DNA from: Octopus vulgaris
Lineage: Eukaryota
Direction of reading: 5' to 3'
Assembly (NCBI GenBank): GCA_951406725.2
Contig: OX597814.1
Coordinates: 214,644,001 to 214,708,000 of the forward strand
Length of the DNA stretch: 64,000 bases
The position numbers and the translations under genes are program-made. Below the pieces are notes generated by a model that worked only from the letters and a program-made list of their open reading frames with translations, had not been told where the DNA came from and made no database searches. Of the stretch, positions 2,925 through 48,959 are shown piece after piece (positions within the stretch are counted from its first letter, which is position 1; each line of letters opens with the position of its first letter).

Positions 2925-3336
2925 TTACTCTTTTACTCTTTTACTTGTTTCAGTCATTTGACTGCGGCCGTGCTGGAGCACCGCCTTTAGTCGAACAAAT
3001 TGACCCCAGGACTTATTCTTTGTAAGCCTAGTACTTTTTCTATCGGTCACTTTTGCTGAACCGCTAAGTTACGGGGACGTAAACACACCAGCATCGGTTG
3101 TCAAGCGATGTTGGGGGTACAAACACAGACACATAAACATATTCACACACGTACATATATATATACATATATACGACAGGCTTCTTTCAGTTTCCGTCTA
3201 CCAAATCCACTCACAAGGCTTTGGTCGCCCCGAGGCAATAGTAGAAGACACCTGCCCAAGGTGCCACGCAGTGGGACTGAACCCGGAACAATGTGGTTGG
3301 TAAGCAAGCTACTTACCACACAGCCACTCCTGCGCC
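2925..3336 (-). mobile_element. SINE family A (tRNA head, internal TA/TG tract, (AAAGAGT)n tail)
   Basis: Full-length match to many copies in the window, e.g. 34544-34960; A/B-box-like tggctgtgtggt and ggttcagtccc. Confidence 0.9.
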
Positions 3337-7510: not shown

Positions 7511-7717
7511 AATGGATTAATGGAACTGTTTGATAACTGGGTGGATTGTCTTGAAATACTTATTCAGTTCTTTTCATTCTGAATAGTTATTATTTGTTGC
7601 CTCATTTAATATGCCCATCTGGTCCCTGAGTTTCTTAACTTCACATTGTCATAAATACTTGAGTCAAATCTCCAGTTTGAAGAAAGCTTTCTTCCTTTCT
7701 CTCATCAGTCTCATCAG

Positions 7718-8486
7718 TGTAAGTACCTTGAAAGAAATGTTGGACCTAAGAAGCATCAGCTGTGGTGTGCAAGAGAGACGATTGCGCTGGTATGGTCATG
7801 TGGCGAGAATGGATGAAGATAGGTGTGTGAAAAAGTGCCAATCCCTAGCAGTTGAGGGAACCTGTGGAAGAGGCAGACCCAGGAAGACCTGGGACGAGGT
7901 GGTGAAGCATGACCTTCGAACTTTAGGCCTCACCGAGGCAATGACTAGCGACCGAGACCTTTGGAAATATGCTGTGTGTAAGAAGACCCGGCAGGACAAG
8001 TGAGTCCAGCCCACTTATGCATGCCTTTCCTCCCTTGGACACACAAAGACCTGTTGAGGCAAGCGAAGTCAAAATCGAACCTCATCTGACGACAGGCACC
8101 CATGCCAACCTCCCTTCATTGGACACTAAACTCTGCTTACGAAGACCTGTTGGGGCAAGTGAAATCGAAATTGAACCAATCCTATGACTGGCACCCGGCA
8201 GTTGCCAGGACCGCTGGACTGACTCCTGTGCAGGTAGCAAGTGAAGAAACACCATTTCGACCCTGTGCTTGAGGAGATCCATTGAGTCAAGTACACCAAC
8301 ATCAAAATCAATGGAAACTGCAGTTGTGATCCCTGTGCCGGTGGCATGTAAAAAGCACCATCCGAACGTGGCCGATGCCAGCGCCGCCTCGACTGACTTC
8401 TGTGCTGGTGGCACGTAAAAAGCACCCACTACACTCACGGAGTGGTTGGCGTTAGGAAGGGCATCCAGCCGTAGAAACACTGCCAG

Positions 8487-10725: not shown

Positions 10726-11420
10726 AACTTGTATGAAAACCTAGTTGGTCTCTGGTTGTCTCAACCTCTGTGTGTGCCACAGGTGTTATAGCTGATTGTG
10801 CTGAAAAATGGGTTCAGTGCTGTGCAACACTACTACTCACCTTGTACTTTGAGGTGCCGCCAGGACACCTCATCAGGGCTATCACTTTGGAGATATCATT
10901 ATTTCATTCTCATTCTCTCTCCTAAATGTGAATAGCCATGTAGCTCTTCTACAACTTGAATGTGATTTACCCCAATCTCTTCTCTCATACCTTAATCGCC
11001 ATTTGACATATGGACATACCTGCTCCATTCCTTGGGCTTTGTAGATATTGTGAGCTGCATGGCAACTTTGAGAGTACATACTACCGAGCATCCAGTATAC
11101 ACTGCAAAGTAGTTGGTGTTGGAAAGATATCCAGCCAAAGATACCAAACCAGAGCAGCCACAGGAACATGATGCAGTCCTTGGACCCATCAGATCCTTTC
11201 AAACCATTCAACCCATGCCAGAATGCAACATGCACATTAAACAGTGGTGGTGATGTTGACAATGATGATGATGATATGAATGATGGCTGTCCACTTTCGA
11301 TCAAGGAAGACCATCACTGACCATTGCCCATGCAAAATGCCAGCAACACCTGTGCATAAGGTTATTGCACTGGATTCCATGTTACCAGCTGCACTCATGA
11401 GCAATCTTACAAGTGACGTG

Positions 11421-11460
<40 letters not shown>

Positions 11461-11542
11461 AATTGCAGCGTGGAAGGTGTTTGTAAGCCATTTAAGAAAC
11501 ACACAAAAGCCGTTTGATTCACTTCGACATTTAAGTTTAATA

Positions 11543-11589
11543 TGTCAAAATATTTTCGTCGCTTTAAGACCATGACCTGTTCACTGACA
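11543..11589 (-). ncRNA. Hammerhead-like motif, G3:C8 core variant
   Basis: tgtca GTGAACA ggtcatggtcttaaagcgac GAAA atat TT tgaca. Confidence 0.6.
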
Positions 11590-11635
11590 AAAATCCATGA
11601 TGCATCACGGATTTTTGAGATGCAGCACGGATTTT

Positions 11636-11682
11636 TGTCAGTGAACAGGTCATGGTCTTAAAGCGACGAAAATATTTTGACA
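11636..11682 (+). ncRNA. Hammerhead-like motif, G3:C8 core variant
   Basis: Helix I tgtca/tgaca, core GTGAACA 11641-11647, GAAA 11668-11671, palindromic stem III AATATT. Confidence 0.6.
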
Positions 11683-12099
11683 TATTAAACTTAAATGTCG
11701 AAGTGAATCAAACGGCTTTTGTGTGTTTCTTAAATGGTTTACAAACACCTTCCATGCTGCAATAGTTTTCGTTCCAGTACATGATCTCAGATCAAATCAC
11801 TTGCTATGCAAGTACATCTCCGTATATATATATATTTATATATATATAAACACATACATTCATACACACACACACACATGATGTATGAATATACTCCATT
11901 GATGCTTTCTTTAACCCATGTTGCCAAATGTAACATTGGTGGCTTCTTCTTTATCTCTTGATTTCCAAATGTTCTGAAAGCATCTGTCTTAGTCTCCTTG
12001 TATTGCTGATGAAATATTACTGTTTTCTGGGTAGGAGTAAGATACTTTCCAGTTCTGCATGCATCCAACAATTCTGCTTACTGCATAATTAGTGAAGGC

Positions 12100-28861: not shown

Positions 28862-29860
28862 GCTGACAAATACAAACAAGAAATCATACCACCTAATAAA
28901 CACAAAGAAGAAGAAGAAGATGATGAAGAAACAACAAAAGCTATAAAACAAATGAAATCCAAACTAAAAATAGAACAGCAACGAGCCATGATAAAACGAT
29001 GGCAAGAAAAACCCCTTCATGGTAAATACTGCACCAAACTAAACGCAAAAGAAATAGACAAAGAAAGATCCCAGCAATGGTTGAGAAGCTCAGGACTCAA
29101 AACAGAAACAGAGGGATTTTTAATTGCAGCACAAGACCACAGCCTCCCCACCAGAAATTACCAAAAACATGTAATGAAAAGAAATATTACAAGTAACTGC
29201 AGAATATGTGGAGATGGACAAGAAACAATAAATCATATTATCTCTAGCTGCCCAGTCCTGGCTAAGAAGGAATATATTCACAGACATGACAGAGTTGGAA
29301 CCTACATACATTGGAAGCTATGCCAACATTATGGAATAACAACAGAAAAAAGATGGTATAGGCACACACCAGAAAAGGCCACAGAAAACGAGAAAGCAAC
29401 CATACTCTGGGATATGCCGATACATACAGATAGAGAAATTAAGGCCAACAGACCAGATATAGTTGTCAGAGATCATGAAGAAAAAAATGCTTTCTAATTG
29501 ATGTATCAATACCGGCAGATGACAACGTGTCTCTAAAAGAAATGGAGAAACTCTCAAAATACAAAGACCTGGAAATAGAGGTAACTAGAATGTGGAACCT
29601 GAAAACAGAAACAATTCCTATTATAGTAGGTGCATTAGGCATGATAGAAAAATATTCAGACAAATACATAACAAAAACACCAGGACTTACAAACACATAT
29701 AACATACAGAAAATTGCACTATTAGATACTGCACACATCCTACGCAGAACACTTTCCATACAATAACCATCAGAGCATCACAACAAATCACAGCACATAC
29801 CCAAGGCACACAGAGCTGCGCTCGGTAGTGAAGTGAAAGCACGCTATAAAAATAAAACTA

Positions 29861-40342: not shown

Positions 40343-40443
40343 TGTATATATACATGCATGTATATATACATATACATGCATGCATATAGAAATATATATT
40401 TATATATATATTATTATTTAAAGGTCACAATACATGTATTAAA

Positions 40444-40496
40444 GCGCTACTAATAGTTTCATGTGTAGAGAGAACTCAAACATATTCTTCAGATGC
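40444..40496 (-). ncRNA. Type I HHR motif downstream of PLE endonuclease
   Basis: gcat CTGAAGA atatgt-ttgagttctctct-acacat GAAA ctattag TA gcgc; stem III ACTA-T-TAGT. Confidence 0.72.
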
Positions 40497-40675
40497 AAAC
40501 CACATATCATAACAAACAAAAAAATTGAATAGATAGAAGAACCATGATGAAGCTGAGACCTGCAGCATATAGAAACTGCAGGCAGTAAACAACAGAAAAC
40601 AAAACAAAGGTGTCAGAAGGAAAAAAAGTGCCCTCCTCCTTAGGCCTTAAATGATAAGGCTGGAGAGATATCAAG

Positions 40676-41060
40676 TCATTTAGGAATAGGCAAAATTTTC
40701 CAATTCTTCAGAATATATTTATACATATGTATGCAACTACTGAAAATTTCTGATCTGGAGTTCAATAGAGAGTTATGGATCTTAGATCTGAACAGGATCT
40801 GCGCTCTTTCAGCCAAACAAAGTCTACATTTATTCAGTGTATTCACATAAGGTATGGATTTCTCAATTGCTTTCCATTTAATCGCATGCAGTGTTTTGTT
40901 ATCTTTCAAAGTCCATACGTAGCTAGCCAACTTTGTAGCTTTACTTTTGTCCCTATGTTGGAAGGAGGTTATGTGACTGGCATAGTGATTTTTAAATTCT
41001 CCTTCACATGATCCAATATATGTCTTCTTATCAGTTGTATTATTATATCTATATCTATAT
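40676..41060 (-). pseudogene. Penelope-like GIY-YIG endonuclease, 5'-truncated but open
   Basis: KTYIGSCEGEFKNHYASHITSF...TKLASYVWTLK...IKWKAI...CRLCLAERAQIL...LLNSRSEIFSSC. Confidence 0.88.
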
Positions 41061-41114
41061 GTATGTATGTATATATATATAATCAAAATAAGCAACAAGA
41101 ATGACTCCGGTAAT

Positions 41115-41200
41115 TTGGTACGATCATTTCATACTACATCATTTTATTAAATGTTGTAAGTATTACAACAGTTTTAAAATGCTGAGCACTCATCAGCCAA
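41115..41200 (-). ncRNA. Type I HHR motif
   Basis: ttgg CTGATGA gtgct...agtat GAAA tgatcg TA ccaa. Confidence 0.8.
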
Positions 41201-41402
41201 TTATAGAGGTTTTCTATTAATACAAAAATTTTCATATCAAGTGGCAACATTGTAGAGAAGGTAGATACATATTCAAAGATGTGGATTTAAATTTTAAGAA
41301 CATTCTTGAAATTTAAATCCACATCTTTGTCTATATATCTATCTTCTCTATAATGTTGCCCCTTGATATGAAAATTTTTGTATTAATAGAAAACCTCTAT
41401 AA

Positions 41403-41488
41403 TTGGCTGATGAGTGCTCAGCATTTTAAAACTGTTGTAATACTTACAACATTTAATAAAATGATGTAGTATGAAACGATCGTACCAA
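41403..41488 (+). ncRNA. Type I HHR motif, intact
   Basis: ttgg CTGATGA(41407-13) gtgct-cagcatttta-aaac-tgttgtaa-tac-ttacaaca-tttaa-taaaatgatg-t-agtat GAAA(41473-76) cgatcg TA ccaa; stem III palindrome ACGATCGT. Confidence 0.88.
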
Positions 41489-41662
41489 ATTACCGGAGTA
41501 ATTCTTGTTGCTTATTTTGATTATAATCACCCCGCGAATTTTTATGGATAACACCATACAGACTTCTGGTGCATCTAAATTAAGTACCATATTCATTTGA
41601 ATCTAAGTTTTTGCTGAATGTATATATATATCTGTAAAATAATACATGACAATTATTCAATA

Positions 41663-48450: not shown

Positions 48451-48486
<36 letters not shown>

Positions 48487-48624
48487 CGGAGATGTACTCG
48501 CATAGCAAGTAATTTGATCTGAGATCGTGTGCTGAAACGAAAACAATTGCAGCGTGGAAGGTGTTTATAAGCCATTTAAGAAACACACAAAAGCCGTTCA
48601 ATTCACTTCAACATTTAAGTTTAA

Positions 48625-48674
48625 TTTGTCAAAATATTTTCGTCGCTAAAATCCGCGACCTGTTCACTGACAAA
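48625..48674 (-). ncRNA. Hammerhead-like motif, G3:C8 variant, best-preserved copy
   Basis: tttgtca GTGAACA g-gtcgc-ggatttta-gcgac GAAA atat TT tgacaaa; 7-bp helix I, 5-bp helix II. Confidence 0.68.
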
Positions 48675-48689
48675 AATCCGTGCTGCATC

Positions 48690-48735
48690 TCAGTGAACAG
48701 GTCGCGGATTTTAGCGATGAAAATATTTTGACAAA
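48690..48735 (+). ncRNA. Hammerhead-like motif, G3:C8 variant (helix I cut by the inversion junction)
   Basis: tca GTGAACA ggtcgc...gcgat GAAA atat TT tga. Confidence 0.55.
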
Positions 48736-48959
48736 TTAAACTTAAATGTTGAAGTGAATCGAACGGCTTTTGTGTGTTTCTTAAATGGCTTATAAACACC
48801 TTCCACGCTGCAATTGTATATATTGGTGACACAAACTTTCATTCACACTTTGAATTTGGTGATACTGGTAACGGCTTTAGCTCGCTCTGATACTATGAGT
48901 TGAGGTGATGTCTTCTAGTACCTCGAAATTTAATATACAATTATTCATAATTGTAGAGT

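Follow-up and report, generated by a model that had tools for sequence, protein, structure and literature searches.

The stretch of DNA analysed here, called the window below, comprises 64,000 nucleotides of the Octopus vulgaris genome and contains two fold-back copies of one short repeated element, each composed of two inverted arms placed head to head. Direct reading of the window sets the true limits of the first copy at 11457-11824 and those of the second at 48483-48817, and the features described at the first fold-back by an earlier, sequence-only reading are indeed present in the sequence. Element positions are numbered throughout on a real copy of 209 bases (L007:1493-1701). On this scale, the right arm of the first fold-back covers positions 1-208 and its left arm runs from 152 down to 3. 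The motif GTGAACA...GAAAATATTT occurs on both strands of each copy, at 11641(+) and 11584(-) in the first and at 48693(+) and 48667(-) in the second. That the two loci have different inversion junctions and a common one-sided extension can be seen directly, the extension being the tail of ~57 bases. The arms of the second fold-back differ at 2 CpG sites and have no rare variant in common, while no target duplication is readable at the first, because both of its flanks consist of (TA)n. The coordinates are collected in Table 1.

Table 1. Features of the two fold-back copies in the window
Feature	Position	Strand	Remarks
(TA)n target, left flank	11428..11456	.	(TA)-rich again from 11823
Inverted arm, positions 152 down to 3, without tail	11457..11606	-	Begins at the inner one of two end points typical of the family
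Ten-base templated junction insert	11607..11616	+	Extra copy of element positions 11-20, read from sequence
G at element position 1	11617..11617	+	C or T in long copies; probably a copy of the RNA cap
Direct arm, paired part, positions 2-152	11618..11768	+	The autonomous element's terminal repeat (pLTR)
Minimal type I hammerhead motif	11634..11684	+	G3 (11641), C8 (11646); mirror copy on the minus strand from 11584
First codons of the element ORF	11734..11824	+	ATG is element position 118; by comparison with L283, L284 and L285
One-sided tail, ~57 bases	11769..11824	+	Final letters CATCTCCGTA
Second fold-back, younger subfamily (loop II ATTTTA)	48483..48817	-	Same plan, opposite orientation, another junction
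Arms of the second fold-back	Tail arm 48691 to 48483; inverted arm 48690-48817		Tail arm, positions 1-209; inverted arm, positions 22-150

Other features lie elsewhere in the window. The minus strand at 40400-41128 carries the 3′ end of another, older Penelope-like family, with 20221 candidates genome-wide and a GIY-YIG-type frame that has no Pfam match; sister copies of this family contain a minimal hammerhead with the canonical C3:G8 pair, and their two end points are ~60 bases apart. Beside a (TA)n run, at 41078-41525, there is a palindrome with 223-base arms (96% complementary) and a 2-base spacer, in which neither a match to the neighbouring Penelope-like element (PLE) loci nor a long frame was found. 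Two frames, at 28862-29497 (+) and 7587-8003 (+), resemble C-terminal parts of non-LTR retrotransposons (possibly R4/Dong-like and RTE-like), and dispersed repeats of 229-244 bases are present in 6-8 copies each (D16, D18 and D19, e.g., at 3123, 7296, 20619 and 43510).

Undamaged copies of the family are predicted to fold as a minimal type I hammerhead with a 7-bp stem I, the core GUGAACA, a bulged G, a 5-bp stem II, GAAA, an AAUAUU palindrome and U17. The Watson-Crick 3:8 pair, stems I and II, the GAAA, a UH site and the palindromic dimer loop are thus in place and the canonical C3...G8 core is absent. At 11457-11824 the palindromic AATATT replaces helix III and the cut is predicted after U17 (11677/11678); both stem I and stem II of this copy are damaged. 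The sole motif in the window accepted by a stem-pairing descriptor is that at 48667(-), in the tail arm of the second copy, both motifs of 11457-11824 being rejected. The swapped core had been read as a family trait and not as decay of one copy, and this holds, since G3 was found in 125/126 and C8 in 120/127 similarity-chosen arms. The related refuting condition, a core as variable as its flanks, was ill posed, since non-CpG positions of dead copies decay alike whether or not they belong to the core, and constraint can be judged only from lineage-defining changes. Of 22 columns with such changes, 0 fall within the core, stem II or stem I, with the exception of a T-run length change at column 20, which is modest evidence of constraint. 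The ends of family copies do not accumulate at the predicted cut, and Rfam gave no hammerhead match at 11300-12000, the 36 matches up to E 10 being all below the gathering score and mostly to microRNA hairpin models.

The C3:G8 pair is kept in some relatives and neighbours of the family. A hammerhead family with near-identical stem I/II flanks, a canonical core and C at the cut site (L365-L368, on contigs C2, C3, C5 and C14) provides a natural comparison for the core swap. Canonical-core matches in the same flank numbered 7, and the 5 that were fetched belong to other families. Of 17 metagenome relatives scanned, 3 have a detectable hammerhead, always with C3:G8, and 14 have none, several of them with little flank. 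C3:G8 is found in the sister family with similar flanks, in the other PLE family of the window and in these 3 metagenome relatives. A natural U3:A8 pair has been reported (PMC3088659, PMC4209133), an engineered 3:8 swap is described as partly restoring cutting (PMC11167929) and as working better without C17 (PMC3884650; further background on hammerheads in PMC6765202). A natural G3:C8 pair was not found in the literature searched; the supplementary hammerhead lists of two papers (PMC4209133, PMC8557442) may bear on this. The natural G3:C8 core of a recently active element offers a ready test of how plastic the hammerhead core is.

A DNA search of the 2.8-Gb genome returned 2103 candidates, and among the 40 that were scored the best other match to the locus reached 95%. 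The two-core fold-back pattern, with cores facing apart and 4-34 bases between them, is present at at least 837 loci and at 0 in a reversed control, so that the fold-back family lies far above chance. In a sample of 171 distinct loci, drawn from six differently chosen sets, 162/171 tail arms end at positions 204-209 and 109/137 inverted arms at positions 145-158, which gives the one-sided extension of ~57 bases. Exceptions to the one-tail rule were also noticed: in L202 and L203 the inverted partner has a tail as well (to position 209), and in L106 both arms are without it. Over half of the loci (85/162) are set in microsatellites. At the readable, non-microsatellite loci a target duplication of at least 8 bases surrounds the whole unit in 57/77 cases, compared with 5/300 mismatched flank pairs; the duplications are variable in length, 8-16 bp, and mostly 12-16 bp. 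Tabulation of the inversion breakpoints, as the sequence-only reading had proposed, gave 35 kinds of junction in 50 fold-backs chosen by position. Forms that mirror each other, e.g., (1,12) and (12,1), occur with equal frequency, an overlap of 1-4 bases is found in 29 of the 50, and many junctions use the TGCA palindrome at element positions 5-8.

The short piece occurs in tandem arrays too, with four units, each with a tail, in L005/L027 and nine units, with a tail on the last one only, in L022; the units of both arrays are separated by (TA)n and a fixed spacer. Several pairs of loci (L009/L010, L191/L192, L371/L372 and L255/L256) have common flanks or identical breakpoints and are probably segmental or assembly duplicates.

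When contigs were aligned to the element, a recurring sequence appeared upstream of position 2, and a pattern made on that sequence detected 565 arms with a 5′ extension. The extension leads through a (TACA)n-rich 3′ UTR of ~1 kb into an ORF of ~1070 codons (~1000 open codons in L282). The translation contains the RT motifs GGAIG and YVDD, then a linker CQSNCAVC (CxxxCxxC; in L250, L251 and L282) and, at the C-terminus, a GIY-YIG domain (Pfam PF01541, 25.5 bits at a cut-off of 22.6). Pfam RVT_1 has no match to the L282 protein and matches 3/21 aligned relatives. The protein has 28 homologues, the best at 52%; the nearest named one is an Octopus vulgaris protein labelled only as an RT-domain protein, and solved structures yielded a single weak RT match. 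The autonomous PLE with RT, GIY-YIG and this pLTR, for which a search had been suggested, is thus present in the same genome. The pLTR stands at the 3′ end of the long element and, in partial tandems (L283, L284 and L285), at the start of the ORF, where it continues unbroken past position 209 into the ORF with the ATG at position 118. In these copies the frame continues into the RT-endonuclease region, so that the piece in the window comprises the pLTR together with the first part of the reading frame. The long copies are young, some being 0-0.2% apart on different contigs, and they often fold back as well, with breakpoints all along the element. In 20 long fold-backs (those with two scorable arms among 25 loci supplied) the arms disagree at 5/839 polymorphic sites, against 23% for other loci. 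The main haplotypes, from the oldest to the youngest, are common to short and long copies, which makes the short copies offspring of the autonomous lineage. On sequence comparison, the element at 11457-11824 is confirmed as a short head-to-head copy of the pLTR of an endonuclease-bearing Penelope-like retrotransposon.

Some other candidates and readings were set aside. The GIY-YIG fragment at 40676-41128 is not the parent, having no DNA similarity to the element and a canonical C3:G8 core, and a 3.4-kb tandem on contig C2 (L247, L248) is not a full-length element. That nothing extends 5′ of position 1 (132 loci) was an artefact of locus choice, and the long form surfaced through the loose ends of contigs. 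An open frame of 68 codons across the short piece is broken in the ATTTTA subfamily, the real frame starting at position 118.

With its long inverted arms, its target duplications and its AT-rich target, the element could also bring to mind a MITE or a foldback DNA transposon with long terminal inverted repeats. The arms of such a transposon should group by side. Instead, as the tree proposed by the sequence-only reading was meant to reveal, they pair by locus. Partner arms show 0.039 differences per site and arms of different loci 0.077, and between loci the tail-tail, inverted-inverted and cross distances are 0.075, 0.078 and 0.077 (87 of 102 fold-backs, those with enough overlap). A tree of 38 loci joins the two arms as exclusive sisters at 12 loci, 11457-11824 among them, against 0.25 (maximum 2) after shuffling, and the side label changes 31 times compared with 25.6 in shuffled trees, i.e., there is no grouping by side. 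A transposon of this kind is thereby excluded for practical purposes, and further points speak against it: junctions are variable, the tail is on one side, many copies are single-armed, arms of long copies reach kilobases, and the parent encodes RT and GIY-YIG and no transposase. The sequence-only reading had listed target duplications as a sign of a MITE; they do exist, but are of the variable retrotransposon kind and not short and fixed in length, so that the test was ill posed. Its view of the element as Penelope-like, without transposase terminal inverted repeats, is borne out.

The sharp 5′ end, the high copy number and the two tandem arrays might in turn suggest a separate non-autonomous family, SINE-like or a retrozyme, that has its own master and is moved by a Penelope-like enzyme; retrozymes have been argued to come from pLTRs (bioRxiv 10.64898/2026.07.22.740005). 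We regard this as very improbable, given that the short copies follow the haplotypes of the long element at every age. Tail arms chosen by their 3′ part start at positions 1-38 in 21/22 cases, and at 64 in one, and not at the predicted cut (position 62), whereas tandem monomers, the main form of retrozymes, are represented by just 2 arrays among 132 loci, with units that include the target (TA)n. An end-to-start joint, a sign of circular RNA, was absent from the joints listed in a search of contigs, which by their nature cannot show ends or strand, and in a search of sequencing runs the stretch was contained in contigs from four organisms, with no RNA data among them.

Where do the short copies begin, and on what template? 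In long copies the letter before position 2 is C, or T in the youngest subfamily. In the first 100 of 1067 listed matches this letter is G in 60, A in 9 and T in 31, and 8/9 of the T cases checked are long copies; C before position 2 outside long copies was found 79 times in all. Among single-armed copies G is present in 12/15, i.e., in 6/7 of one set (after removal of the false matches L009 and L010 and of two long copies) and in 6/8 of another (with one duplicate merged). The short copies stop at one base, mostly with an added G that is foreign to the long element and likely comes from an RNA cap, which would imply a capped sense RNA starting at position 2. Full-length L1 insertions are reported to gain a G from the mRNA cap (PMC11702581), and transcription of Penelope and Chlamys is described as starting within the pLTR (PMC2377424, PMC8557442). 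The count of G has to be read with the caveat that the other arm of a fold-back often supplies a G at the same place, and that in the single copy L383 the G coincides with the target duplication. Upstream of position 2, the loci L217-L246 look like a splice acceptor, with a branch-point-like CTAAC, a pyrimidine run and AG directly before the element; donor-like sites lie ~300 bases further upstream, compatible with a possible 5′ UTR intron as in Penelope, whose intron is reported to end near helix I (PMC4209133). The 5′ end may thus be linked to splicing instead of a capped start at position 2. In the predicted fold of L007 the first five bases pair with the end of the tail and bases 6-10 with 140-144, so that both end points of the family are engaged; the fold of the whole element is no better than that of shuffled sequences (z -0.72), so this pairing is a lead only.

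The earlier proposal that the inverted arm is made anew at each insertion is supported by these data. How it is made is, in our opinion, probably explained by both ends of the cut target priming reverse transcription separately on capped sense RNA, with a head-to-head double copy of the pLTR as the product. The endonuclease would make a staggered cut, after which one DNA end would prime at position 209 and the other at ~150, resulting in a 57-base tail on one side only. When the sites near the 5′ end of the RNA are used for priming, each cDNA would reach the capped start in less than 200 bases and run off it, perhaps with an extra C opposite the cap, i.e., a G on the sense strand. Head-to-head joining of the two cDNA ends would follow, in most cases through a microhomology of 1-4 bases; both arms would usually copy one source sequence and in a minority of cases two. 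After insertion the arms would decay, and template switching or conversion between them would make stretches identical. Parts of this scheme have counterparts elsewhere: the PAc protein is reported to cut and extend both strands, beginning at two internal sites that delimit the tail (PMC11167929), and in L1 opposite-facing cDNAs are described as being joined end to end (PMC11702581).

The main competing account is self-priming, either by snap-back of the first cDNA or by an antisense RNA, as proposed for rotifer Penelope elements from junction palindromes and intron retention (PMC3846280). It would accommodate the many junctions at TGCA and the nearly constant match of the arms in lineage, and a single template would account directly for the variants common to both arms. 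However, a snap-back of the tail cDNA cannot yield an inverted arm longer than the tail arm, and such arms are seen in about half of the copies. Of 20 long fold-backs, 11 have a longer inverted arm, 8 a longer tail arm and 1 has arms of equal length (compiled table with two tail sides inferred; L255 and L256 are probably one duplicated locus), and very young ones, with 0-3 differences over 1-2 kb, are also among those with the longer inverted arm. At 114 loci the 5′ end is kept by the tail arm in 32, by the inverted arm in 28, by both in 4 and by neither in 50. Template switching is reported to flip the spacer between the arms of inverted repeats (PMC8604942); by itself, such flipping would randomise which arm looks longer and could imitate the symmetry where copies are old, to a lesser degree where they are very young. 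Snap-back also leaves the fixed start near 150 unexplained, and it is this start, together with the fact that either arm can be longer, that favours two-ended priming. Moreover, both arms may reach positions 1-3 with 0-1 base or a short insert between them (11457-11824; L389/L390), 24 loci have arms of two subfamilies, and a capped sense template is suggested by the G found at the 5′ end of the sense strand. On this evidence we hold self-priming to be improbable.

The 24 mixed loci come from a genome-wide comparison of loop II in 344 fold-backs, in which ATTTTA is on both arms in 266 and TCTTAAA on both in 54; by arithmetic, random pairing would give ~107 mixed ones. The youngest 5′ marker is absent from all 24 and present in 28 of the first 50 matched loci (counted by eye), and mixing therefore follows overlap in time. 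Loop II and the tail marker that belongs to it are uncoupled at 10/22 mixed loci, compared with 5/83 elsewhere, and in mixed loci outer variants are often common to both arms. Recombinant tail arms (30 fetched of 50) belong to 25 fold-backs (12 mixed, 9 matched and 4 unscorable) and 5 single copies. Mixed arms may reflect two templates followed by flipping or homogenisation, or else patch conversion from another copy. Exchange of the 5′ half at the ribozyme cut is not supported as their source, as loop II is the only part changed in L065 and L205, and a difference in outer markers is seen in 3/23 mixed loci. A patch-like exchange, with loop II of one subfamily in a much older or younger background, is visible in L065, L176, L193 and L205. 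One may imagine a dimeric enzyme with two capped sense RNAs, paired via the palindromic loop of the natural G3:C8 hammerhead, where each cut end copies one RNA from its own fixed start. Each jump would then use two templates, of which the mixed fold-backs (24/344) would be a direct fossil record, and the short hammerhead copies that animal genomes contain by the thousand would be strong-stop-like cDNAs of the capped start of an mRNA; we offer this as a speculation that is more doubtful than the two-ended priming itself.

A further claim was that the arms of 11457-11824 share private variants. The shared letters are present: the arms differ at 5/150 paired columns (9, 12, 122, 139 and 148) and have 5 non-majority letters in common (36, 37, 67, 83 and 94). 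However, the loop-II difference between the two loci is a subfamily mark, and two of the common changes are recurrent CpG transitions, found at 23 and 16 of 167 other loci. The changes in 'aatatgtc' and 'ttcgac' are rare (1/167 and 1/168 other loci), and together they have 2 exact matches in the 2.8-Gb genome, namely the two arms. CpG transitions arise in genomic DNA and not as RT errors. Among 171 loci no other one carries more than two out of the four private changes, and the genome-wide exact-match search found no sibling or source copy, a search that could miss a source mutated since and that concerns an assembly of one haplotype. All five arm differences fall outside one identical block of 109 of the 150 columns (P=0.008); pooled over 48 loci, the clustering of arm differences gives P=4e-5, a value open to alignment artefacts. 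Three of the four private changes weaken stem I or II and two of the four are CpG transitions. Family-wide, 66/389 rare or CpG variant sites are on both arms, against 7.5 by chance (116 fold-backs); 37 of these 66 are CpG transitions, and a runs test of shared and unshared sites indicates weak clustering (P=0.07).

The identical block, the missing sibling and the damaged ribozyme fold make later homogenisation likely, and arms of inverted repeats are reported to homogenise by template switching (PMC8604942). Judging from the sequence, we therefore consider it fairly probable that the common private changes arose by decay after insertion and were then passed from arm to arm. Alternatively, the changes could have been in the source RNA already, if a decayed short copy was transcribed and moved in trans, with no homogenisation afterwards. 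The family-wide excess of shared variants agrees with that, as do the long fold-back L250, with 8 private changes on both arms compared with 4 on one, and the report that hammerhead cleavage is unnecessary for insertion in vitro (PMC11167929), so that a damaged source could move. Yet the two rare changes occur together nowhere else, the best other match (among 40 scored) is at 95%, and the position of the arm differences, the CpG transitions and the weakened stems all speak against a mutated source, which we find rather unlikely. The shared private mutations, together with the existence of mixed arms, do not support the earlier use of them as proof of copying at insertion. Mutations mirrored in a palindrome are not such proof in general, and this matters for the dating of insertions.

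The layout of the insertion has already been published for endonuclease-bearing PLEs, and the family described here combines it with a variant ribozyme core. What is added is the stop at one base with a G, the fact that either arm can be longer and the arms of two subfamilies, which favours two-ended priming over snap-back. Both the origin of the inverted end and the choice of a sense or antisense template are stated to be open for PLEs (PMC3846280, PMC11167929). With hundreds of fold-backs, marked subfamilies and very young long copies, this family can separate the models: the added G argues for a capped sense template, and the symmetric, sometimes mixed arms argue for two-ended priming. The Penelope-like insertion unit, as described for Adineta Pen2a (PMC3846280), for other elements (PMC8557442) and for Penelope of D. 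virilis (PMC2377424), has in common with the present one a shorter inverted head-to-head pLTR, a one-sided tail, a pLTR over the first codons, partial tandems, (TA)n targets and inverted repeats of variable size. The tail is ~57 bases here and 30-40 in the published units, and the target duplication is mostly 12-16 bp here and 8-10 in Adineta. Most copies here are pLTR-only, ending at one base with an added G, and some have arms of two subfamilies, features that were not found in the published literature searched.

By linker motif and domain order, the family appears to be of the Neptune/Nematis type (PMC8557442), with which it has in common an RT, a CX2-5CxxC linker (CQSNCAVC here), a C-terminal GIY-YIG and microsatellite targets, and compared with which the ORF length and the (TACA)n-rich 3′ UTR of 1 kb are its own. 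PAc (Poseidon of Anolis, PMC11167929), which belongs to another clade, is also reported to have the ORF start in the pLTR and two start points a short way into the ORF that bound the tail; here these lie ~33 and ~92 bases into the ORF. Uncut RNA is described as the substrate of PAc, and the copies here keep sequence 5′ of the predicted cut; the ATG is 56 bases behind this cut, whereas in PAc it precedes it, and the swapped core, natural here, is an engineered double mutant in the PAc system. The minimal dimeric type I hammerheads of metazoan PLEs (PMC4209133) similarly have no real helix III, a palindromic loop, a bulged base before stem II, G10.1-C11.1 and pairs on opposite strands 100-700 bp apart, and differ in having C3:G8 in place of G3:C8. 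Finally, the twin-primed, two-template inverted insertions of L1 (PMC11702581) resemble the fold-backs in the priming of both ends, a target duplication of 12-18 bp, junction microhomology and the cap G; the arms of L1 cover separate parts of the RNA, whereas those of the fold-backs overlap in full, each from one of two fixed internal start sites.
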